Positions 1-10,134 of a DNA stretch of 64,000 nt are shown here, one piece after another; within the stretch, counting starts at the first letter, position 1, and every line of letters starts with the position of its first letter. The notes under the pieces were generated by a model. The model did not search any database, was not told the origin of the DNA, and saw only the letters and a list, made by a program, of their open reading frames with translations. The DNA comes from Ardenticatenia bacterium. Its GTDB lineage: Bacteria; Chloroflexota; Anaerolineae; 4572-78; NAK82. The translations under genes and the position numbers were made by a program. The stretch covers positions 18,338 through 82,337 of the forward strand of contig QEXY01000143.1 in NCBI GenBank assembly GCA_003130875.1, read 5' to 3'.

Positions 1-663
1 ACGCGCGATGCGATGGGCGCCAATGCGGTCAACACGATGTGTGAGGCGCTGGCACCGCGTGTCGAGGAAATTACAGGGGGACGTGTGGTGCTGCGCATCC
101 TGAGCAACCTGGCAGAACGCCGGCTGGTGCGTGTGCAGTGTACTGTGCCTGCCGAGGCGTTGACTTTCACCTCAGACGGGCATTTCTACCCCGGCCAGCA
201 AGTCGTGCGTCGCATTGTGGAGGCGAGTGCCCTGGCTGTGGTTGATCCATACCGTGCTGCCACGCACAACAAGGGTATCATGAACGGCGTGGATGCGGTG
301 GTTATCGCGACGGGGAATGATTGGCGTGCCGTCGAGGCGGGCGCCCATGCCTATGCGGCGCGTACTGGACGTTACACCGCTCTGTCGCACTGGGAGGAGA
401 CACCCGACGGTGACCTGGTCGGGACGCTTGAGATGCCGATGGCCGTGGGTATCGTGGGTGGTACGGCACGTTCACATCCCACCGCGCAAGTCGCGCTCAA
501 GATCCTTGGAGCCAACAACGCCCAAGAGCTGGCGGAGATTATTGCCGCGGTGGGGCTGGCTCAGAACCTGGCGGCATTGCGCGCGCTGGCTACGGAGGGA
601 ATCCAGCGCGGGCATATGCGGCTGCATGCGCGGCAACAGCTGCTCGCCGAGGAAGGGAGATGA
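1..663 (+). CDS. hmgA: HMG-CoA reductase, C-terminal portion (5' end outside window)
   Basis: Frame 1 is open from nt 1 ([16 protein letters not shown]...). HMGR C-terminal motifs are present: [33 protein letters not shown]. The stop overlaps the next start as ATGA at 660-663. Confidence 0.9.
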
Positions 664-1703
664 AACCGCTGAGATCGGTAGGGATTGTCGGTTACGGCGC
701 CTATATACCACGTTATCGTCTGCCAGCCGGCGAGATCGCACGCGTCTGGGGAGAGAAAGGTGAGCCACCGGTGCGTGAAAAAGCGGTCCCCGGACTGGAC
801 GAGGACACGCTCACGATTGCGCTGGAGGCGACCCGCAACGCGTTGGCGCGTGCTGGCATTGACCCTCAAGAGATCGGAGCAGTATGGGTGGGCAGCGAAA
901 GCCATCCTTATGCGGTCAAGCCGACTGGCACCATCATAGCGGAAGCGATTGGTGCGACACCTTATACGTTGGCTGCCGACCTGCAGTTCGCCTGCAAAGC
1001 CGGCACCGAGGCGATCCAGGCTGGCATTGGCCTGGTCGCCAGTGGCATGGTCAAGTATGCATTGGCTGTGGGAGCGGACACAGCTCAAGGGCGTCCCGGC
1101 GATGCACTGGAGTACACGGCTGCGGCGGGTGGTGCTGCCTACCTGCTCGGTTCCGCCGAGGAGAGCTTGGCTGTGTTTGAGGAAAGCCTCTCCTATGTGA
1201 CCGACACACCCGATTTCTGGCGACGACCTTATATGCACTATCCCAGCCATGCCCAGCGTTTCACCGGGGAACCGGGCTATTTTCACCATGTACTTTCAGC
1301 TGCACAGGCACTCATGGAGCGTACCGGTCACAAGGCGGAGCATTTTCGTCATCTTGTCCTGCATCAGCCAAACGCTAAATTTCCCGAACGTGCTGCCCGC
1401 AGGTTGGGTTTCCGACCGGAACAGTGGAAAACCGGATTGCTTGCTCTGGAAATAGGCAACACCTATGCAGGCGCTGCACTGTTGGGGTTGGCAGCGGTCC
1501 TGGACGAAGCGCAACCCGACGAGCGGATCCTGGTGGTCTCGTTTGGCTCCGGAGCTGGCAGCGATGCCTTTATCCTGCGCACTACCGAGCAGCTCCCGGC
1601 ACGCCAACGGCTCGCTACAACCACGCGCGCCTACATAGCCCGTCGTGTGGTGATCGACTATGCGCTCTACGCGCGTTATCGTCGCAAATTGCTCACAGAG
1701 TGA
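660..1703 (+). CDS. HMG-CoA synthase, archaeal-type (short, ~347 aa)
   Basis: N-terminus [15 protein letters not shown], followed by [11 protein letters not shown], a catalytic-Cys region ([11 protein letters not shown]), and [11 protein letters not shown]. Length and motifs fit the archaeal/Chloroflexi HMGCS clade. Translationally coupled to the HMGR gene. Confidence 0.88.
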
Positions 1704-1774
1704 AGATGGGGCAAAGCCGCCGCTGAGATGAGAAGTGTCAAATATCGGAAGATCGACGCTTGGGGATAGGATAG

Positions 1775-2932
1775 ATGCGTGGGGTGAGCATTATCGGTGT
1801 GGGACAGACGCCGGTAGGGGAACATTGGGATCGCAGTTTGCGCCATCTGGCTTATGAGGCTGTATCGGCTGCGATGCAAGATGCTGGTGTCGAAGGCGCG
1901 CATGCGATGTACGTGGGAAACATGCTTTCGGGAGAGATCAGCAATCAATCCCACCTGGGCGCGTTGATCGCGGACTTCTGTGGGCTGCGTGGCATCGAGG
2001 CAGTCAAGATCGAAGCGGCATGTGGATCGGGCGCGGCGGCAGTGCGGATGGGCTATTTGGCCGTTGCCAGCGGCGTTCACGACCTGATCATCTGTGTGGG
2101 CGTTGAGAAGATGACCGACGATGTGGGTGGCAAGCTCACTGCTGCGCTGGCCCAGGCGGCCGATGCGGAGTATGAACTGGCGCATGGCATCACCTTCGTG
2201 GGACTTAACGCGTTGCTGATGCGTCGCTACATGCACGAATATGGGGTACGCCATGAGGATTTTGCTGGTTTCTCCATCAACGCCCATGCCAATGCAGTGG
2301 GCAACCCCTATGCCATGTTTCGCAGACCCATCACGCTGGAGGATTTCAAGCACGCGGATATGATCTGCGACCCGATCAATCTGCTAGACTCGTCCCCTAT
2401 GGCAGATGGCGCTGCTGCGGTGGTGCTTTGTCCTACCGAACAGGCCCATGCCTTCAAGGGGAAGCCAGTGCACATTGTAGGGAGTGCATTGGCGACCGAC
2501 TGCCTCAGCATCCACGACCGTCGTGATCCGCTCTGGCTTCAGGCGGCTGAGGATTCAGCGCGGCGTGCCTATGCTCAGGCCGGCGTAACACCCCAAGACA
2601 TCGATCTGTTCGAGTTGCACGACGCCTTCACCATTATGAGTGCATTGAGTCTGGAGGCGTGTGGCTTTGCCGAGCGAGGCAAGGGCTGGCGGCTGGCGGC
2701 GGAAGGGGAAATCCGGCCGGGCGGTCGCATTCCCATCTGCACTATGGGAGGATTGAAGGCCCGTGGTCATCCGGTGGGGGCTACAGGGGTTTACCAGATC
2801 GTCGAGGCAGTGCTCCAACTTCGGGGCGAGGCCGGAGCATGTCAGATTCCTGACGCCCGTCTGGCGATGGCACAGAATATCGGTGGTAGTGGTGCAACGA
2901 TCATCACCCATATTTTGGAGGCTGAGGAATAG
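1775..2932 (+). CDS. acetyl-CoA acetyltransferase (thiolase, archaeal-type)
   Basis: 385 aa with IEAACGSGAAAV (active-site Cys), ELHDAFT, GGLKARGHPVGATG and NIGGSGAT. Sits between the HMGCS and DUF35 genes. Confidence 0.88.
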   Translation: MRGVSIIGVGQTPVGEHWDRSLRHLAYEAVSAAMQDAGVEGAHAMYVGNMLSGEISNQSHLGALIADFCGLRGIEAVKIEAACGSGAAAVRMGYLAVASGVHDLIICVGVEKMTDDVGGKLTAALAQAADAEYELAHGITFVGLNALLMRRYMHEYGVRHEDFAGFSINAHANAVGNPYAMFRRPITLEDFKHADMICDPINLLDSSPMADGAAAVVLCPTEQAHAFKGKPVHIVGSALATDCLSIHDRRDPLWLQAAEDSARRAYAQAGVTPQDIDLFELHDAFTIMSALSLEACGFAERGKGWRLAAEGEIRPGGRIPICTMGGLKARGHPVGATGVYQIVEAVLQLRGEAGACQIPDARLAMAQNIGGSGATIITHILEAEE

Positions 2933-3032
2933 CGTTGCTTTATTTTCGTCCTTCGAGATCAGCACAGGCACTGAAATTTGATATATTACCCAAAAAGGTA
3001 TATTACTAGAAAATTTGGAGGTATGAGACAAC

Positions 3033-3434
3033 ATGGGAATTCCTGGCACTTGGCGCTTGCGCAATCAGCGATTGGCGTTGATCGGTGAGGTATGCCACAC
3101 GTGTGGCAAGAAGATCTTTCCACCACGTGACGTGTGTCCGGACTGTGCGCGTGAGGCGCAGCATGCTTTCCGCTTCAGCGGACGTGGCGAAATCTATTCC
3201 TTCACCACGGTGTTCAATCCGCCGGCCGGCTTCGAGGAATATGCACCCTACACTGTTGCGCTGGTAAAACTCGAGGAAGGGCCTATCGTGACGGCTCAAT
3301 TGACGGATGTAGAGCCGGATCAAGTGGCCATTGGGCAGCCGGTCGAGATGGTCACGCGCAAATTACAGGATGAAAGTCGCGCAGGTGTCATCAGCTACGG
3401 TTACAAGTTCCGTCCCCGCATGAGTGCTACATAG
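3033..3434 (+). CDS. DUF35 Zn-ribbon/OB-fold protein (thiolase-HMGCS scaffold type)
   Basis: 133 aa with a CHTCGKKIFPPRDVCPDC zinc ribbon followed by an OB-fold-like segment (GEIYSFTTV...YTVALVKLEEGP). Conserved position after the thiolase. Confidence 0.85.
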   Translation: MGIPGTWRLRNQRLALIGEVCHTCGKKIFPPRDVCPDCAREAQHAFRFSGRGEIYSFTTVFNPPAGFEEYAPYTVALVKLEEGPIVTAQLTDVEPDQVAIGQPVEMVTRKLQDESRAGVISYGYKFRPRMSAT

Positions 3435-3716
3435 TTGCCGTTAGTACAGCGTCCAGCGGCATGCACTGGCTGATCGGAAAGCGGCCAGTGCATGCCATCG
3501 GCGCAAATGGGATGAACCTTCAAGGGCAAGGCATCCCACTGACACATCTGCGATGCTTTTGCTCGGCCTGATCAGGGTATGCACTTCTCACGGAATGCAT
3601 CGGACATACCGAGTCACTTAAAACTTCTATGCCGAAAAGCGGGGAGCATCCCATTGATGTCATTGGAAGTGGTTGTAAAGTGGCAGTACTGGGGGCACCG
3701 CTCAGGGATTAGAAGG

Positions 3717-3813
3717 ACCACAAAATCTTGTGGTACAAAGTGACGAGAAGCGCAACAAATTGTATGTCAACGCCCCGGGTGGGACTCGAACCCACAGCAC
3801 ACGGCTTAGAAGG
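3717..3813. repeat. attL-type direct repeat (contains a duplicated 3' fragment of tRNA-Arg at 3771-3813)
   Basis: Identical by eye to 8468-8564 (offset 4751 bp). Identity stops exactly at the position corresponding to tRNA nt 32, the first nt of the anticodon loop. Confidence 0.9.
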
Positions 3814-3939
3814 TTGCCCAAGCCCCCCGTTTGAGCGCCACCCACACTATATGTTGTGCTTTAATCGCCCCATACCACAAGATATTGTGTGGTGCACCCC
3901 TCCATTGCCCCGCTCGAGCGCTAAAGGAATGTGGGCAAA

Positions 3940-3960
3940 TTGCTGTCAAATTGCTGTCAG
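3940..3960 (+). repeat. TTGCTGTCAAATTGCTGTCAG motif, candidate integrase arm-type site (P' side)
   Basis: A 21-nt motif made of two tandem TTGCTGTCA units. An identical copy is at 8428-8448. Both copies are inside the element, one near each att repeat. Confidence 0.45.
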
Positions 3961-4210
3961 CCACAAAACAGAAAACCGCCAGAAGGTGACTTGCACCCTT
4001 GGCGGCACGTATTACACTATCTCCACCGCCTGGTGCTGTGTCCACCAGCGGCCGCCCTGGACTGTGTAAGCAGTGCCAGGGCAAACCTGTTTTCAGCCTA
4101 ACACCGCAACATTAAAACAGCATTAAAGCCCTGTAATTGCCAAAAAGCGGATGTTTCGCCATCCAAAACGTTTTGGATTGGCTTTTTTGCCCTCACAGGT
4201 AGGAGGGGCT

Positions 4211-4486
4211 CTACGTTATCTCCGTGATAAGTGTCATCCGTTCTTCGGCAGTTAAGGTTTGGGACAATGTCGCCCCTGCCAGCAGGTAGCGGCTGAGCCA
4301 GGCTCGGGCTATCGGGTCGCCCCGTCTAGCGGTCTCGACCGCCCGTTGGCAAATCTCCGCCCACACCTCAGGGGGACAAGCGTCAGACAGCGCACGCAGG
4401 TAGTCACTTTCAACCGCCCGCCGAGGTCGGCCAGGCCCACCCTGAGTCCCTGGTACAAAACGCCCATTTTCATCACGCAGATACAT
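4211..4486 (-). CDS. hypothetical small protein (element cargo)
   Basis: 91-aa ORF. The N-terminal motif ENGRFVPGTQGGPGRPRR resembles short phage/plasmid-borne proteins. No function assigned. Confidence 0.5.
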   Translation of the reverse strand: MYLRDENGRFVPGTQGGPGRPRRAVESDYLRALSDACPPEVWAEICQRAVETARRGDPIARAWLSRYLLAGATLSQTLTAEERMTLITEIT

Positions 4487-4574
4487 GTCACACCTCCCAA
4501 TCCGATTGTTTACGGTTAAAACCGTGCTCCCTTTTTGTCGCTTTTTCCGTAATTGTTCAAGTCAAATGTGTTCA

Positions 4575-4802
4575 CTAACGGTCCACCATCTGAAAATTCG
4601 ACTTTAGCGCTGGAGGGCGCTCCCGTTGGTCAGGTGGTCGTGACAGTTCAAGCCACTGCCGCAACAGCTTTGCCGCCGCCCTCAGCTCGGTCAGTGTTTC
4701 GGGCTCGTTTGGTGAGTCTGCACAATACTCAAGCGCCAGCACTGCCAAGGCCAGCGCCTGCTTCCTCGTCATCCGTACTGATTTGTGCCGCAATTTCACC
4801 AA
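4575..4802 (-). CDS. hypothetical small protein (uncertain)
   Basis: 75-aa ORF. It overlaps the 3' end of the upstream nuclease-like ORF by 44-74 nt depending on the start used. No recognisable motif. Confidence 0.3.
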   Translation of the reverse strand: MVKLRHKSVRMTRKQALALAVLALEYCADSPNEPETLTELRAAAKLLRQWLELSRPPDQRERPPALKSNFQMVDR

Positions 4803-5109
4803 ACCAGTCTTCGAAATCGGCCAGCCGCATCAGCACGATATCATCGCTATGTCGTTCCCCGTGCTGGTGCAACACGACAACACCCAGGCGTGTATCGCCG
4901 GCCGCCGCCCTGGCTTGCCCAAGCGCCGCCGACAGCCAAGCCGGCAGTTTTCGCTTTGATTTTACTTCAATTGCCAGCCAGAGCGTCAACACATCCGCCG
5001 TGGCCCTGCCTGTGTTGCCGACCCGCTGGCCGCCAAGGCGCTTAGCAACGGCTCGTTCTGTTCGTTTCCAAGCTTCGTTTGGCACGGTTCTTGCTCCCCC
5101 TCCATACAT
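4729..5109 (-). CDS. PD-(D/E)XK nuclease-like protein (Holliday-junction-resolvase-like)
   Basis: ERAVAKRLGGQRVGNTGRATADV...LAIEVKSKRK gives a D...E-x-K arrangement typical of restriction-endonuclease-fold nucleases. The start was chosen at the internal Met (5109); the longest ORF runs to 5229. Confidence 0.5.
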   Translation of the reverse strand: MYGGGARTVPNEAWKRTERAVAKRLGGQRVGNTGRATADVLTLWLAIEVKSKRKLPAWLSAALGQARAAAGDTRLGVVVLHQHGERHSDDIVLMRLADFEDWFGEIAAQISTDDEEAGAGLGSAGA

Positions 5110-5357
5110 AGCCCTCTGTGCCCAAGGCGTTTCGTGAAGGATGATGAAGGCAAAAAGCCACTTTTCGAAAAGTCCGCCATGGATCGCCCTCCATGGGGAA
5201 TTTTTCCAAAAAAGGCGGTTTGCCTTCACTATCCTACACTGATGCCTTCGAAATACACGCCACTACTCCTTCGCACCCGACTAACACCGTGTGCTTGCAT
5301 CAACTGGCTAAAAGCCCGCATCGTCCGCACTTCTTGCCTGCAGCCTTCCAAGGACGA

Positions 5358-6341
5358 TCAGGTGTCACGTCCGTTGTCCGCCGTTAAAGTTTCTTTAGTC
5401 ATCATCAGTCGATATAGCGTCCGTCCAAAGGGGCGGTCTTCGCCATTCACCACCGCCTGACGAGCCAGGTCACGAATTTGACCCTCGGGATACCGTTGTA
5501 TCACCTTTTTGACTAGGGCATTATTGCCGCCCAAAACCTCCAGCAGTTCGGGCGTTCCAAGGTCTTTAATGTCATCCCACTGTAAACATACCCCATCAGG
5601 CTCTTTTGGGGAAGGGTCGTGCGGCGGCGTCGGCGCTTGCGTTGTCTCCCTATCTTGTCTTCTATATTGTCTTTTATTCTTTTCATGGGTCACTGTGACC
5701 CATGAAAGGGTAGGTCTTTCTGAGCTACCGGTAGGTCTTTCTGAGCTACCGGTAGGTCTTTCTGAGCTACCACCCACCTCTTTCATAGCTCTTTCTGAGC
5801 TATGAGTCGCCTGGTCAAATTGCGCTCCTATTTGCCGCTTTTGGTGATATAGGTCAGTTATGCCCATAATGTTGGTCGGATTAAAACCATGGGCAACCCA
5901 TTCCCGGATGGTCGCTTCCCAAACACTTAAATCAAAATTGTCTTCACTGGCCACATTGCGGATGAATTCCCTGGTGGCGGGTGACACCTTGCGCCCAACT
6001 AGCGCACGATATATCTGCGCCGCCTTAGTTTCTGCCGCACTATCCCTTTGCCCTGCCAACACGTAGGTATGCGGGACGTTCCGCAAGCCCGGCGTGGAAT
6101 CGACAATCAGCCCCGCCTTTTTAAGGCGTCGCAAGGCCCTTTTTACCGTGGCAACCGAAAGCCCCAAGTTTTGGGCAATTCTGCCCTGGCTGGCATAGCA
6201 ACGCCGACCGCTCATCTGCGTGTAGCGATAAACCTCACCGAATACTGTCGCCTCGATCAGCGTGAAACCCTGTTTGATTAGAGCGTGCGATACTGGCGTG
6301 AAGGGTGTCATCAGGTCGTCATCGCTCACGTCCATCGTCAC
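5358..6341 (-). CDS. winged-HTH replication-initiator-like protein with internal heptapeptide repeats
   Basis: 327 aa. The N-terminal wHTH is ASQGRIAQNLGLSVATVKRALRRLKKAGLI. GSSERPT x3 is encoded by 3x21-bp repeats. The start overlaps the upstream gene stop by 4 nt. Confidence 0.65.
   Translation of the reverse strand: MTMDVSDDDLMTPFTPVSHALIKQGFTLIEATVFGEVYRYTQMSGRRCYASQGRIAQNLGLSVATVKRALRRLKKAGLIVDSTPGLRNVPHTYVLAGQRDSAAETKAAQIYRALVGRKVSPATREFIRNVASEDNFDLSVWEATIREWVAHGFNPTNIMGITDLYHQKRQIGAQFDQATHSSERAMKEVGGSSERPTGSSERPTGSSERPTLSWVTVTHEKNKRQYRRQDRETTQAPTPPHDPSPKEPDGVCLQWDDIKDLGTPELLEVLGGNNALVKKVIQRYPEGQIRDLARQAVVNGEDRPFGRTLYRLMMTKETLTADNGRDT
5709..5771. repeat. 3 x 21-bp perfect tandem repeat (GGTAGGTCTTTCTGAGCTACC), iteron-like, plus a degenerate 4th unit near 5789-5802
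   Basis: Read directly from the sequence. The repeats are in frame inside the Rep-like gene, and 21 bp equals two helical turns. Confidence 0.8.
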
Positions 6342-6826
6342 ACCTCGAATGGAAGCACTAGTTGTTTTGCCTCAGCGGTCGGCTGCGTGTCACCAAGACG
6401 CACCACGGTTTTGGCGAATGGCCACTCCCGCCACTGGCAGGGCGTGAGCCAGGTCAGCGGGACGTAGCGCTCCCCGTCAGCCCCCAGCCGACCACGGTCG
6501 AAGGTGTCAAGGCTGCACACCCCCATCCGCCTGTAGCGGTCATCCCTGAGACAGAAGCGCCGCACACCAAGCCGACGGGCGTAGTCCAGCACCACCTGCG
6601 GCAGGCTGACGACCCTCTGCGTGCCCCGCTGGTTGCGCCAAACCACGGCTAGGACAAGCTCGCCGTCCAGAGGCACAACCTTGGCAATTGTGCACCAGCG
6701 GGCTCGTTTGTGGACTTGCAGGGCTAATAGCTCGGGTGTATGATACGGTCGAGCACTAGCGCCTGTCGTGCTCGTATTTTCCTCGCCTGCCCGTCCCATC
6801 TGCGCCACAGGGGCGGGCCATTTCAT
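6338..6826 (-). CDS. hypothetical protein (element cargo)
   Basis: The start at MKWPAPV forms an ATGA overlap with the RHH gene stop (6823-6826), and the stop overlaps the Rep-like start. The longer 232-aa ORF in the track overlaps the RHH gene and is unlikely. Confidence 0.5.
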   Translation of the reverse strand: MKWPAPVAQMGRAGEENTSTTGASARPYHTPELLALQVHKRARWCTIAKVVPLDGELVLAVVWRNQRGTQRVVSLPQVVLDYARRLGVRRFCLRDDRYRRMGVCSLDTFDRGRLGADGERYVPLTWLTPCQWREWPFAKTVVRLGDTQPTAEAKQLVLPFEV

Positions 6827-7026
6827 TGTTCGCCATCGCATGGCTGCACCTCCATTTGACGCTGTACTGCGCCCAAGCCCGAGCTGACCAGAGCACGCAA
6901 GACACGGCTTAGCCGCCTTTCGTTTCTCTGGCGAGCGAGCTCGACGATGGCCTGGTAAGTCGGGATATCGATCTTTACAGAGACCGTTACGACTGGTTTG
7001 CTCATCGGATTCGTTTGCTGCTCCAT
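6823..7026 (-). CDS. ribbon-helix-helix (CopG/Arc-like) DNA-binding protein
   Basis: 67 aa. KPVVTVSVKIDIPTYQAIVELARQRNERRLSRVLRALV matches the beta-strand plus two-helix RHH pattern. A strong RBS (GGAGGTGA) lies upstream of the ATG. Confidence 0.65.
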   Translation of the reverse strand: MEQQTNPMSKPVVTVSVKIDIPTYQAIVELARQRNERRLSRVLRALVSSGLGAVQRQMEVQPCDGEQ

Positions 7027-7085
7027 GGCGTGTCACCTCCTAAATGTTCGAATCAAAAAGGCCCGGCCTTTTCCAGCCGGGCCCC

Positions 7086-7114
7086 TTGACAAGGTGTCAA
7101 ACATTTGATATAAT
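7086..7114 (+). promoter_or_regulatory. consensus sigma70-type promoter (TTGACA-17-TATAAT) with palindrome TTGACAaggTGTCAA over the -35
   Basis: TTGACA at 7086-7091, a 17-nt spacer, TATAAT at 7109-7114. It points away from the RHH operon and into the integrase 3' end (antisense). Confidence 0.5.
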
Positions 7115-7299
7115 GGCAATAGCCCAGCTGGAAAAGGGGCTGCCACTGTATTGTGGGTGCGCCATGGCTGGCAACCGTCGCACCCACACTTTTTACTTGG
7201 CGAGTTTACCACCATTTGCCGTTTGTGCAAACACTAAAGGCTCATTTTTCCTTAGTGATTTCCTTCACAATCCCGTTGTGTTGTTGCCCTGCGCTCGTC

Positions 7300-8415
7300 C
7301 TAACGCCCCACCTGTAGCGCCTCAGCGATCGCCGTGGCAGCCGCATCTTTCCCTGCGACCCTGTCCACGTAGTGCGCATAGACCCCTAACGTGATATTGG
7401 CGTTTGCGTGGCCCAGCTGTCGGCTCACATCCGTGATGGGCAGCCCTGCGCTGATGAGCAAACTGGCGTGGAGATGGCGGAGGCTGTGCGGTGTCACGAC
7501 CGTCACCCCGATGTGCTGGCACAGGCGCTTTAGGGTGCGTCCTACCACACTAGGGTTTAGAGGGTCACCTTGGTGATTGGCGAACATCAGCTCATCAGGT
7601 CGCCAGCCTGCACCCAATTGCTCGACCTGCCGCACCCTGTGCTGTCGCAGGATAGCCACCACCTCATCGGGCAACGTGATAGTGCGCACACCGCTGGGCG
7701 TCTTAGGGGCGGAGAAGACCCATTCGCTGCCGACCCGCTGGACATTGCGGCTTACCCGTAGCTGTCGGGTTACAACGTCCAGGTCGCCCCACCGCAGCGC
7801 CAACGCCTCGCCCAGGCGCAGCCCAGAGGCAATCAAGAGTAAATATAGCGGATAAAGCGGGTGGCTTTTCGCTCCGTCCAAGAAGCGGCGCAACTCGTCT
7901 TGCGTCCACAGTGCTCGCTGAGCATATGTATGCTTTGGCTTCACCATACGGTCGCAGGGGTTAGTGGGCAGCCACCCCCACAAGACAGCCAATACGCAGG
8001 CACGATGTAGCACCCGATAGACCTTCTGCGCCGTTCGGGTCTTGCCCGCTTTTTGCAACGGCAGGATGAGCCGCTGTATCACGACAGGGGTGAGGTGCGA
8101 TAACCGCAGGTGACCCACCGCTGGCAGGATGTGCACCCTGCACAGTTGGCGGTAGGTTTCTAAAGTGCGGGGTTTCAGGCTGGGCGTCGCCATCTCCAGC
8201 CAGGCGTTCAGCAGGTCGGCCACTGTGCGCTTGCCAGGGTCGGACAGCATACCCCCTAGGTGTGCCTGCTCCTGCAACTGCCTGAGCTTGCTGGCCACTT
8301 CCGAGCGTGTTCGCCCGTAGACAGTGCGACGCTTACCGTCCACCATCAGGCTGGCACACCAACGGTTATCACTACTGCGCCGATAAATTGACCCCTCGCC
8401 ATTGCTGCGCTTCAT
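7300..8415 (-). CDS. int: tyrosine recombinase / phage-type integrase
   Basis: 371 aa with an N-terminal SAM-like domain. The catalytic boxes are GLRLGEALALRWGD (Arg), HSLRH (His-x-x-Arg), LGH and YAHY (Tyr). Adjacent to the tRNA and attR. Confidence 0.92.
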   Translation of the reverse strand: MKRSNGEGSIYRRSSDNRWCASLMVDGKRRTVYGRTRSEVASKLRQLQEQAHLGGMLSDPGKRTVADLLNAWLEMATPSLKPRTLETYRQLCRVHILPAVGHLRLSHLTPVVIQRLILPLQKAGKTRTAQKVYRVLHRACVLAVLWGWLPTNPCDRMVKPKHTYAQRALWTQDELRRFLDGAKSHPLYPLYLLLIASGLRLGEALALRWGDLDVVTRQLRVSRNVQRVGSEWVFSAPKTPSGVRTITLPDEVVAILRQHRVRQVEQLGAGWRPDELMFANHQGDPLNPSVVGRTLKRLCQHIGVTVVTPHSLRHLHASLLISAGLPITDVSRQLGHANANITLGVYAHYVDRVAGKDAAATAIAEALQVGR

Positions 8416-8427
8416 ACCTCCCTCCCG

Positions 8428-8448
8428 TTGCTGTCAAATTGCTGTCAG
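8428..8448 (+). repeat. second copy of the TTGCTGTCAAATTGCTGTCAG motif (P side, in the integrase 5' region)
   Basis: Identical to 3940-3960. It lies 13 nt beyond the int start codon and 20 nt from attR. Confidence 0.45.
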
Positions 8449-8467
8449 GGCAGGGAGGGGGGCGGAT

Positions 8468-8564
8468 ACCACAAAATCTTGTGGTACAAAGTGACGAGAA
8501 GCGCAACAAATTGTATGTCAACGCCCCGGGTGGGACTCGAACCCACAGCACACGGCTTAGAAGG
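8468..8564. repeat. attR-type direct repeat (overlaps the functional tRNA-Arg 3' half)
   Basis: Identical to 3717-3813. It covers 54 nt downstream of the tRNA plus tRNA nt 32-74. Confidence 0.9.
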
Positions 8565-8595
8565 CCGTTGCTCTGTCCGCTTGAGCTACCGGGGC
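8522..8595 (-). tRNA. tRNA-Arg (anticodon TCT)
   Basis: Manual cloverleaf: acceptor GCCCCGG/CCGGGGC, D arm GCTC/GAGC, anticodon stem ACGGC/GCCGT, loop CTTCTAA, T arm GTGGG-TTCGAGT-CCCAC, discriminator G. 74 nt, with no encoded CCA. Confidence 0.9.
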
Positions 8596-8921
8596 ACACA
8601 GTGTCACACATGTTTTAATAAGTTTCCAATGCAGTTTTGCTGCGTTGTTGCCTATTGCTCCCTGACAGACTGCTGAAAGATTGGCTGTCGATTGGCCACG
8701 GTCGCTTTTCCTTTAACACTTGCCAAACAGAAAACTCCAGGGTTCCACGTTCGCCAGCGAGCTCCGCTGTCCTCTCGTCCGTCAGAGCGACACTTCACTC
8801 TGGCCACGAAGTGGACTGCGCAAACAACGCCGAGGCATTTATCCAATTCCATCATAACACAGGTTTTCCAAGTCTCGCAACCTTGCGGGCGCATTGAATA
8901 CATTTCAAACCAGGAGCGAGT

Positions 8922-9194
8922 TTAAGAAAGCGTACCGTTATGCCTATTCACCCAGTTGGACAAATCCGCGCTGAACGATTGAAAGCTTAACTCGGCCCCA
9001 TTCTCGTCGGGAATCGCGTGCAGAGCTTGGTCAATCGCGGGGTGTTCCGGACCCCTCCTCTTGGGCGGTAACGACAGAGGTCCTGACCACTGTGAGGACA
9101 CCCATTCGATTCCACGAGTATGCAAGCACTCGATTGCCAGCTCCTTTAGGTCAGTGGCTGCTGCTAACTCGGTTGCCATTCTTTCTGCATCCAT
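8922..9194 (-). CDS. hypothetical protein (uncertain)
   Basis: 90-aa ORF with no recognisable motif, next to a transposase remnant. Confidence 0.3.
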   Translation of the reverse strand: MDAERMATELAAATDLKELAIECLHTRGIEWVSSQWSGPLSLPPKRRGPEHPAIDQALHAIPDENGAELSFQSFSADLSNWVNRHNGTLS

Positions 9195-9245
9195 TTTGAA
9201 ACCCTGTAGGTCCAGCTTATCTTTGGGTCCGAAAGCACAGCAAGG

Positions 9246-10134
9246 TCATGCCCAACTACTCAAGAAGAGGTGTGAGATTGCCGTCCACCTCGTCGTGCTG
9301 TAATAGGCCAATAGCTCGTTACCGGCCTCTGGGTCACAGATGAGGAGTCGATCGGCCGCAATGCCATCCAACAACACCGGCGGGAAAAGGACAATCCCCT
9401 CATCCCCGCGATAGCCCAAACACCGCAACACTGCCAGCGGCGGTTGGTTCTCCGTCCCCGCCTCCGTGTGCAGACGCAGCCCATTGTAGCCATACACCCA
9501 ACGGGCGTTGAGCGCCAGGAATTGCCGCACACTCTGCGCCTGAAGCAGATAGGGGCAATAGAACGCCTCACCGTCGGTGTGATGACGGCGTTCCACCCGG
9601 CCGTTGCCCCTTACGCACCAGGGGGTAACGCCGCCGTTCACCGCCCAGGAGTTGCAGGAAGCGACGGCTCCGTCCCGCCACGGGCTGCGGGCTGTCGCCC
9701 CCAAACTCCTGCCCCCGGTCGGTCTGGAAGGTCAGCGGGGACTCCACCCCAGAGGCCCGCAGCCACCGCAACACCAGGAGCAGGAAGGCCAGGCCACACG
9801 TGCGGTTCAGGTGCTGGCGGAAGGCCAGAAAGCGCAGACGGGTGCGCCCAGCGCACGCCATCCATTGATAGCGCGGCCGATGATGCCGCCGCAGGTGAGT
9901 GGTAGGCTGCGTGCCCAGACTCGCCTTGGCGTGGATGTCCTGCACGTCCATCTGGATGAGGCGGAAGGGCGTCTCCACCTCCCACGCCCCGTGCGCGGAT
10001 CGACGCACCGGTGTGCGCGACGCAGCTTCCGCTGGCCACAGCGCTGTAGGAGGTAAAAAGTTCTGATCCTCCTGGCGCGAGTACCGCTCATTGTTGCCGA
10101 TCTGTGGTATAATAGGATGTGACATAAATAGCAC
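9246..10134 (-). pseudogene. rve/DDE transposase remnant (IS481-like), frameshifted and N-terminally truncated
   Basis: Two overlapping frames carry parts of one integrase-core domain: QMDVQDI...FQTDRGQEFGG (9568-10134) and NGRVERRHHTDGEAFY (9246-9704). No HTH region, and no inverted repeats were identified. Confidence 0.7.

Follow-up and report, generated by a model that had tools for sequence, protein, structure and literature searches.

The 64,000-nucleotide stretch of contig QEXY01000143.1 analysed here (in the following "the window", with positions counted from its first letter) belongs to the metagenome-assembled genome (MAG) of a thermophilic Ardenticatenia bacterium and harbours, at positions 3717-8564, a compact element inserted into a tRNA-Arg(TCT) gene. 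That this locus is a genuine integrative element we regard as close to certain. Its 4.75 kb code for a tyrosine integrase, a ribbon-helix-helix (RHH)-like protein, a conserved protein named orf162, a winged helix-turn-helix (wHTH) protein that is a candidate replication initiator (Rep), a PD-(D/E)XK nuclease and a terminal 91-residue protein, orf91. Since homologues of orf91 are found in the small-terminase (TerS) slot of phage genomes, the gene set can be read as that of a minimal phage satellite akin to the phage-inducible chromosomal islands (PICIs). This position of the homologues favours a satellite over a cryptic plasmid, and we give the satellite reading about an even chance. The fully delimited candidate comes with relatives: its family counts no fewer than four elements with known ends, plus about 30 fragments. 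It helps to set a lower bound for an element that integrates, replicates itself and redirects packaging. Should the satellite reading be wrong, the locus would still illustrate cleanly how small an integrative replicon can be.

Integration into the tRNA-Arg(TCT) gene

The element is bracketed by two 97-nt direct repeats, at 3717-3813 and 8468-8564, which are 100% identical and spaced by 4751 bp. An earlier interpretation of the DNA letters without database searches (the sequence-only reading) had pointed out these perfect repeats and assigned them to tRNA positions 32-74 plus 54 nt downstream; both statements hold, the second exactly so with the Rfam boundaries. The intact tRNA-Arg(TCT) gene, the sole tRNA gene that ARAGORN finds in the whole window, lies on the minus strand at 8521..8596 according to ARAGORN and at 8522-8595 according to Rfam (RF00005, 68 bits). 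Its anticodon loop corresponds to 8563-8557; position 8564, the last pair on the 5' strand of the anticodon stem, is where the right repeat ends. From 8564, the right copy (8468..8564), which represents the tRNA-proximal attachment (att) site, spans the tRNA to its 3' end and continues 53-54 nt further downstream; it thus combines 44 nt of the tRNA 3' part with a 53-nt trailer. The left copy (3717..3813), the distal att site, retains a 3' pseudo-fragment of the tRNA. As the sequence-only reading had proposed, the tRNA is regenerated at the right repeat, and the gene is kept whole because its anticodon loop and all that follows on the 3' side are provided by the element.

Two observations had been named beforehand that would speak against mobile DNA, namely a repeat scattered over many unrelated loci and related strains with the same genes but no repeats. 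The repeat is not generic, because it is confined to the two sites in the window and has no exact match in metagenome or viral collections, where the pattern scan was aimed at attP and attB. Its 56-nt non-tRNA part has no further copy in the 64-kb window even with three mismatches allowed (0 expected). The sole other copy of the locus, on the metagenome contig L001 described below, has the same genes together with the same repeats.

Among the features expected of a tRNA island, the window has repeats that include the tRNA 3' part, a regenerated tRNA and a tyrosine integrase with the full catalytic set. The integrase gene (7300..8415, minus strand, 371 aa) matches PF00589 (3.5e-24), PF14659 and PF22022 as well as phrog_1 (1e-70), and its product consists of an N-terminus for arm binding followed by SAM-like, central and catalytic domains. 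The residues R200, K238, H310, R313, H336 and Y346 are invariant in four integrases of the family. Its nearest phage relatives are integrases of Thermus phages, with 36% identity.

Short tandem repeats on both arms of the element are likely arm-type integrase sites, judging by their motif and placement. On the integrase-proximal arm, just upstream of the int start, tandem 11-nt repeats (TTGCTGTCAAATTGCTGTCAG) occupy 8428..8448 of the plus strand; on the integrase-distal arm, 2.2 copies (CAAATTGCTGT) lie at 3929..3960 in the same orientation. Within the 64 kb, the 11-nt motif is found exactly three times (0/100 shuffles); the copies share one orientation and are distributed over the two ends of the element. 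A related motif, arranged in like manner and again just upstream of int, is present in two relatives of the element, L008 and L007. The motif reads AAATTGCTGTCA in the window (reverse complement TGACAGCAA), TGACAGCAT in L008, for which a reverse complement is not applicable, and ATGTCGTCA in L007 (reverse complement TGACGACAT). These arm repeats speak for a common integration machinery.

The span of the repeat, from the anticodon stem-loop to the tRNA 3' end, is the pattern expected for strand exchange in the anticodon loop with the element restoring the 3' part. A crossover at the other end of the repeat, at an ACCACAA palindrome, is less likely: it would leave the carried 3' part of the tRNA unexplained, and a relic core next to the element matches the anticodon-loop end. 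The palindrome (ACCACAA..TTGTGGT) forms the outer repeat ends at 3717-3734 and 8468-8485 and has a third copy at 3873..3900; related CACCACAA motifs lie near both ends of L008. The 53-nt trailer common to attP and attB may preserve the native 3' context of the tRNA.

The relic core just mentioned is a degenerate third copy of the anticodon loop and 3' stem, located in host sequence immediately next to the left repeat (3696..3716). It matches 3793-3813 at 17/21 positions, and the last 8 nt are identical. It may have been left behind by an older integration event, or else represent a secondary core site. It fits serial use of tRNA-Arg(TCT), as known from tycheposon islands. We considered whether the sequence left of the repeat is a decayed full tRNA 3' half and rejected this, as only 21 nt are similar and the sequence is unable to pair with the tRNA 5' half. 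No relic of an earlier element was found in the flank of L007.

A family of elements with exchangeable replicases

All plausible genes of the element lie on the minus strand, in agreement with the sequence-only reading, and all ORFs listed there exist. Its integrase, RHH, wHTH Rep-like and PD-(D/E)XK assignments are backed by Pfam and PHROG matches, by the RHH proteins of relatives and by invariant motifs. The family is best recognised by orf162 (6338..6826, minus strand), which is always located between the RHH gene and the replicase. This gene had been listed as an unknown of 163 aa; it is present, but encodes 162 residues. Word-indexed and pattern searches returned relatives only in Chloroflexota genomes and a few metagenomes (four proteins, three genome loci and 26 metagenome loci). 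D96, D117 and E119 are among the invariant positions of a 24-sequence alignment. Searches in Pfam, PHROG, NCBIfam and PDB sequences gave no match for orf162. An AlphaFold2 model (pLDDT 72) has weak similarity to Hjc/PD-(D/E)XK folds in Foldseek (E = 4e-3).

Four elements could be delimited by direct repeats, each in a different tRNA gene: the window element in tRNA-Arg(TCT) (4,751 bp, 97-nt repeat), L008 in tRNA-Arg(CCG) (6,053 bp, 64-nt repeat), L028 in tRNA-Asn(GTT) (6,231 bp, 62-nt repeat) and L007 in tRNA-Pro(GGG) (6,948 bp, 79-nt repeat). The presence of homologues with tRNA-derived repeats in three other Chloroflexota tRNA genes strengthens the earlier idea of a very small, tRNA-integrated element for integration and replication that probably depends on a helper. 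Identities of the relatives to the window proteins amount to 40-57% for the integrase, 45-60% for orf162 and 42-64% for the nuclease, and these three co-occur wherever contigs are long enough. The gene order of the family is int, an HTH_23 protein in some cases, RHH, orf162, replicase, nuclease. Integrase, RHH protein, orf162, nuclease and the arm-type repeat motif are constant; the replicase varies.

The replicase slot is filled by a Prim-Pol protein with PriCT in L002 (2438-3334) and L009 (10230-12457), and by a D5_N/DUF5906 superfamily 3 (SF3) helicase, with or without a DnaG-type (Zn-ribbon) primase, in L005 (555-2515) and L006 (1662-3140). L007 has a 723-aa primase-helicase and L008 an AAA_25/DnaB-like protein. 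The 327-aa wHTH protein occurs in the window element only. The replicase module has clearly been exchanged among family members, whereas the core is conserved; orf162 is a family-defining factor of this core and independent of the replicase type. Since the slot holds replicases in the relatives, there is strong positional evidence that the wHTH protein of the window is a replication protein as well. The differences in the replicase also explain why the window copy is the smallest of the family; to judge from the available sequences, it is the smallest known member of a group restricted to Chloroflexota. As conserved unknowns, orf162 and the small nuclease are targets for function discovery.

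A candidate initiator and two candidate origins

The rep gene (5358..6341, minus strand; NCBI DDG58_11140, there with a start at 6335) encodes a lambda-O-like candidate initiator. The protein matches HTH_36 (1.7e-9), and its best PHROG is phrog_391, "replication initiation O-like", at a weak 1.4e-6, followed by phrog_678 and phrog_345. An exhaustive search retrieved about 960 remote homologues, all of them matched via residues 13-100 only, and the ten that were examined are all HTH_36 proteins. There was no match to the Rep_3-family initiators (PF01051), and the RP-C and RepL matches were faint and below the cut-off. A tblastn search with Rep against the 72,556 plasmids of PLSDB remained without a match. 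The sequence-only reading had called the replication genes plasmid-like. This does not hold for a lambda-O-like gene with intragenic iterons, and from the blastn and tblastn searches of PLSDB the element seems not to be related to known plasmid replicons.

The candidate iterons are 21-bp repeats inside rep (codons ~180-211), three of them perfect (5709-5771) and a degenerate fourth at 5784-5804, with 0 expected. They have dyad symmetry (GGTAG..CTACC) and encode GSSERPT three times. They are abutted by an AT-rich tract at 5630..5708, a candidate DNA-unwinding element whose GC content of 0.37-0.42 is the lowest in the element. Within this tract, 5642-5677 consists of 12-nt repeats, and a palindrome of 25 nt without mismatches occupies 5682-5706. 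DnaA boxes are absent from the element, and none of its seven ORFs encodes a P-type helicase loader according to Pfam, PHROG and NCBIfam.

A second candidate cis site is a long imperfect inverted repeat with 50-nt arms (106 bp; 5134..5239) between rep and the nuclease gene, with a predicted DNA fold of -32 kcal/mol (z = -6.9). As an alternative or addition to the iterons, it is a candidate origin, terminator or resolvase substrate. Inverted repeats, often with internal short tandem repeats, also lie between replicase and nuclease in L027 (3642-3732), L008 (11827-12000) and L007 (12480-12615). They recur although the replicases are unrelated, and may represent a family origin or a nuclease substrate.

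One may ask whether the element replicates at all. It could be an integrative island that is carried passively, in which "Rep" is a wHTH regulator and the 21-bp repeats are a coding duplication. The wHTH is indeed the sole recognisable Rep domain and matches many regulator families; helicase, primase and loader are not encoded, and the lack of DnaA boxes would fit as well. However, bona fide replicases hold the Rep slot in every relative, namely Prim-Pol, D5_N SF3 helicase, primase-helicase or AAA_25 proteins, the best PHROG matches of Rep are replication initiators, and dyad repeats that abut the AT-richest 60-90 bp are the classic layout of an iteron origin (PMC7466680). We therefore consider a non-replicative island very improbable.

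A terminal gene with homologues in the small-terminase slot

The gene at the integrase-distal end encodes orf91 (4211..4486, minus strand, 91 aa), a DUF5681-like protein, and is followed by a terminator-like hairpin with a T-run at 4148..4165 on the minus strand. The orf91 family comprises 44 members, i.e. 43 relatives with 48-68% identity besides orf91, and 30 of the 44 match PF18932 (DUF5681). In four out of five viral contigs from IMG/VR (L044, L045, L046 and L047), the homologue lies directly upstream of, or overlaps, the large-terminase gene (TerL), which is followed by the portal gene. The adjacent TerL genes match phrog_2 in one case (1e-29) and phrog_38 in three (8e-104, 3e-95 and 4e-98). 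The homologue in L043 shares 60% identity with orf91. Because its homologues occupy the canonical small-terminase slot before TerL, orf91 is read as TerS-like; by position and homology it is probably a small-terminase-like DNA-recognition protein. This links DUF5681, an uncharacterised Pfam family, to the small-terminase position in phages. It also modifies two earlier statements. Of the "two small ORFs" listed at this end both exist, but the 91-aa one is not anonymous and the 75-aa one (4575..4802, minus strand) is doubtful, because it overlaps the 3' end of the nuclease gene, is uncalled in the near-identical L001 and has no homologue. The stated absence of capsid, terminase, relaxase and type IV secretion system (T4SS) genes stands for the large terminase and the other three, but not for the TerS-slot homologue orf91. 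Searches in Pfam, PHROGs and NCBIfam gave no match to capsid, large terminase, portal, tail, lysis, relaxase or T4SS genes.

The neighbouring nuclease gene (4729..5229, minus strand; probable true start 5109, 126 aa) encodes a PD-(D/E)XK protein that resembles Holliday-junction resolvases (phrog_2002, 1.3e-4). Its relatives match the PHROG Holliday-junction resolvase families phrog_244 at 1e-8 and phrog_2002 at 1e-5, and the family motif E..PD..ExK is invariant. Homologues of the nuclease occur in nine viral contigs, and in L048 and L049 they are located two to three genes upstream of TerS-TerL. The nuclease-orf91 end of the element hence mirrors what precedes the packaging genes in phages and breaks off at the point at which TerL should start.

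Such a layout would also result if a temperate phage had lost the region from TerL through lysis while the int-to-TerS half and the distal att site survived. Integrase, regulator, replication gene, resolvase-like nuclease and TerS-like gene follow each other as they do in a temperate phage ahead of TerL, the integrase is of the phage type, and an insertion sequence (IS) inside the L001 copy is compatible with decay. Nevertheless, a deletion remnant is unlikely. All genes are intact and tightly coupled, and the repeats are perfect; the integrase-distal arm retains a terminator and arm-type repeats, as at a natural end and not at a deletion scar. Furthermore, several independent relatives of 6-7 kb in other tRNA genes are likewise devoid of structural genes, and other small elements also end in a DUF5681-like gene.

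A DUF5681-like gene in the terminal, integrase-distal position was also seen in small integrative elements that are unrelated to the family, at L010 3044-11194, L013 6822-10566 and L015 8757-10946. They comprise an element of 8.1 kb that lies in tRNA-Pro(GGG) between 47-nt repeats and encodes an AAA_25 helicase and a 503-aa integrase, a ~3.8-kb module of integrase, DUF1580 protein and DUF5681-like end gene, and a third element that has AAA_25 with serine-recombinase fragments. These elements suggest a wider set of TerS-bearing mini-elements.

Phage satellite or replicon without packaging

The satellite reading combines integration by the integrase, replication by a probable O-like initiator and iterons, a resolvase-like nuclease, a TerS-like protein and the lack of genes for particles or conjugation. 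In the life cycle that we propose, the integrase would excise the element as a circle, crossing over where the repeat reaches the anticodon loop. The RHH protein, possibly together with a countertranscript and an attenuator hairpin upstream, would control the RHH-orf162-rep operon. The wHTH initiator would bind the four 21-bp iterons within its own gene and, in the manner of lambda O at ori-lambda, open the adjoining AT-rich tract, and would then recruit the helicase and primase of the host, since the element encodes none. Branched or multimeric replication products would be resolved by the PD-(D/E)XK nuclease. Finally, orf91 would mark the DNA of the element for the large terminase and the capsids of a helper phage.

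Several observations weigh against this reading. The assignment of Rep is weak at the sequence level (E about 1e-6, with the wHTH alone), a tandem duplication of coding sequence without cis function could account for the 21-bp repeats, and the 106-bp inverted repeat competes with the intragenic iterons and could equally be the origin region of the family. The assignment of orf91 as TerS draws on where the gene lies in relatives that are 30-60% identical, with no PHROG or structural match, and with 91 aa orf91 ranks among the shorter proteins of its family. The complete orf162-family members L007 and L008 have no orf91 homologue, so that TerS hijacking would not be a family-wide strategy unless analogues went unrecognised; a 129-aa Zn-ribbon/HTH protein of L007 was considered as such an analogue, and no support was found. 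Relatives of Rep and orf162 are absent from the close-relative scans of IMG/VR, from phage records and from PLSDB, and neither an excised circle nor an empty site nor a helper phage was found.

The searches behind these negative results covered several forms of the element. The sequence-only reading had proposed to look for the circular junction and the empty site and to compare the element with plasmid and phage databases. Neither approach gave a hit: the repeat pattern was unmatched in the metagenome and viral collections and no junction was found, and among plasmids and phages neither the entire element (blastn) nor Rep, orf162 and orf91 (tblastn) had a match. None of 41 loci that were tested for terminal overlap is a circular contig. 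Exact-sequence look-ups of the DUF35 protein from the left flank, Rep and P0001 found nothing, and that of a 90-aa flank ORF returned only the occupied contig L001. The close-relative scans of IMG/VR, made with Rep, orf162 and alignment A1, retrieved none, profile searches of the PDB with alignments A1, A2 and A4 gave nothing significant, and PADLOC detects no defence system in the element. Since the searches revealed neither a circular form nor an empty site nor a helper, mobility and hijacking are what we infer.

The main alternative to a satellite is an integrated cryptic plasmid or tycheposon-like "hitcher" that excises, replicates and spreads by vesicles, transformation or lysis. In that case orf91 could be a DNA-binding factor of the att arm, e.g. 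a recombination directionality factor. Integrase and replication genes at a tRNA without packaging genes are typical of most tycheposons (bioRxiv 10.1101/2020.12.28.424599). The lack of a TerS match for orf91 itself fits this alternative (Pfam, PHROG, a Foldseek search of its model against the PDB and the PDB profile search yielded nothing meaningful), and so does the fact that no family member was found in IMG/VR via orf162. The terminal, att-adjacent position of its homologues in the unrelated L010 and L013 would suit att-arm binding. On the other hand, four of the five viral orf91 homologues sit in the exact TerS slot before TerL and portal, the nuclease family likewise occurs just upstream of phage packaging modules, and the initiator matches none of the 72,556 plasmids and has no Rep_3-type domain. 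We therefore rate the hitcher as possible but clearly less probable than the satellite.

To our knowledge, phage satellites and "hitcher" elements are nearly confined to Proteobacteria, Firmicutes and some few Actinobacteria, and we know of none described in Chloroflexota. A large survey with SatelliteFinder has no mention of this phylum (PMC10085698). It is tempting to go a step further and to regard the element and its relatives as an undescribed satellite family of Chloroflexota with a core of integrase, RHH protein, orf162 and PD-(D/E)XK nuclease and with swappable replicases. The window copy would then be the smallest known satellite that unites its own integration, replication and TerS-like redirection of packaging, and orf162 and the nuclease would form a module for helper sensing or DNA processing, i.e. 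hijacking. This extended proposal is possible, but we consider it less likely than not.

Comparison with known systems

With PICIs and the Staphylococcus aureus pathogenicity islands (SaPIs) the element shares an integrase gene at the att site, regulators, an initiator with a nearby origin, a probable TerS homologue as the last gene and the absence of structural and lysis genes (PICI core: PMC10085698). It differs in its size of 4.75 kb versus about 10-15 kb and in its regulator, as there is no match to PF05930 or PF12728 for an AlpA or Stl-type protein and an RHH-like protein is found instead. Primase-helicase, capsid-morphogenesis (cpm), ppi and rpp genes are missing, and the initiator is a wHTH protein and not pri-rep. 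Moreover, the TerS-like protein stems from a different, DUF5681-like family, and the host belongs to the Chloroflexota.

The PICMIs (phage-inducible chromosomal minimalist islands) of Vibrionaceae are similar in having about six genes, an integrase, a small operon in ATGA-coupled style and no capsid remodelling, and in their expected dependence on a helper. They are defined by co-localised int, AlpA and a DUF3987/DUF5906 primase next to fis (PMC10803314). The window element has only int of this defining set; DUF5906 is found in the relatives L005 and L006, but not in the window element. It is inserted into a tRNA gene, has a TerS-like gene and a nuclease in addition, and is 1.4 kb smaller than PICMI115 (6,110 bp).

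Tycheposons of Prochlorococcus and other marine bacteria include a terS-bearing PICI-like subtype, leave partial tRNA relics of serial integrations and have exchangeable replication modules (bioRxiv 10.1101/2020.12.28.424599). Like them, the element uses a tyrosine recombinase at a tRNA gene (their targets include tRNA-Arg(TCT)), consists of a small module for integration and replication and lacks capsid and conjugation genes. Unlike them, it comes from another phylum and habitat and has a wHTH initiator in place of a primase/helicase. The likeness is to the operational description of tycheposons, and orf162 and the PD-(D/E)XK nuclease are outside the described hallmarks.

The replication region resembles lambda O and ori-lambda in the N-terminal wHTH, in four dyad iterons and an AT-rich tract in the middle of the initiator gene, and in iterons that encode extra linker residues (PMC7466680). 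In contrast to lambda, no P-like loader is present, the similarity is limited to the wHTH, the repeats are 21 bp long and a 25-nt palindrome lies between iterons and AT tract. By this analogy the 21-bp repeats of the window are candidate initiator binding sites only. Finally, the element is small, integrates into a tRNA gene and has int and a replication gene, as do pSAM2-type integrative and conjugative or mobilisable elements of actinomycetes. A relaxase, oriT-associated protein, coupling protein, FtsK/Tra translocase or Nudix gene had no match in Pfam, NCBIfam or PHROGs.

Control region between int and the RHH operon

The RHH-like protein (6823..7026, minus strand, 67 aa, with its own ribosome-binding site) is itself without a Pfam match. 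It can be aligned with the small proteins that relatives encode at this position, and the corresponding protein of L006 matches RHH_5 and RHH_1; the window protein is a probable repressor of the RHH-orf162-rep operon. The ATGA overlap noted before is real (6826-6823) and joins the RHH gene to orf162; likewise, a GTGA overlap (6341-6338) joins orf162 to rep.

Between int and this operon, a GC-rich hairpin (GGCCCGGC..GCCGGGCC) with a T-run lies at 7055..7085 on the minus strand and resembles a terminator or attenuator. It is part of a longer palindrome (about 7042-7110; leader fold z = -2.9). On the plus strand, a perfect sigma-70 consensus promoter (TTGACA-17-TATAAT with TG, 12/12 matches; 7086..7114) points into the 3' end of int, and downstream of it a hairpin (GTGGGTGCG..CGCACCCAC) with a T-run is located at 7148..7192 (plus strand, -30.4 kcal/mol). 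Promoter and hairpin could give rise to a countertranscript of ~70 nt that is antisense to the int 3' untranslated region and the leader of the RHH operon. The layout resembles the countertranscript/attenuator control of plasmid rep operons. The predicted fold of the small RNA at 7148-7192 is no better than that of shuffled sequences (z = -1.2), Rfam has no match and the region is not conserved in relatives; because of this fold and the lack of conservation, the countertranscript stays a hypothesis.

Second copy and flanking genes

The Ardenticatenia bacterium MAG contains proteins identical to Rep, orf162 and orf91, with locus tags DDG58_11130 to 11145. A second copy of the locus is found on L001, a contig from a JGI metagenome (sample 3300038964), which is 99.93% identical over window positions 1-9716 and has the same element, site and repeats. 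The density of single-nucleotide polymorphisms between the two is similar in the element and in the flanks, and therefore the element predates the split of the two populations. That integration is recent or still reversible, as the sequence-only reading suggested from the perfect repeats, is a possibility only; both samples have the element in one and the same site, and no attP or attB junction was found. L001 differs by an IS of ~1.19 kb at its positions 2649-3846, corresponding to an insertion at 7069-7082 of the window. This IS has two ORFs (one of them DDE_Tnp_1_assoc), ends in the inverted repeats CAGGGCTTTTCAGTTCT and has duplicated 9 bp of its target (TTTTCCAGC). It lies in the loop of the int-RHH hairpin and would uncouple the RHH operon from the control region upstream.

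In the left flank (660-3434), genes for HMG-CoA synthase, thiolase and a DUF35 protein (ChsH2-type OB-fold) form a trio, and HMG-CoA reductase is located beyond it in L001. Together they constitute an archaeal-style mevalonate-pathway cluster in a Chloroflexota genome. Beyond the 5' side of the tRNA, at 9246-10134 on the minus strand, there are very GC-rich ORFs that look like transposase debris, with a weak rve_3 match (E = 0.015). They may represent an IS remnant adjoining the integration hotspot.

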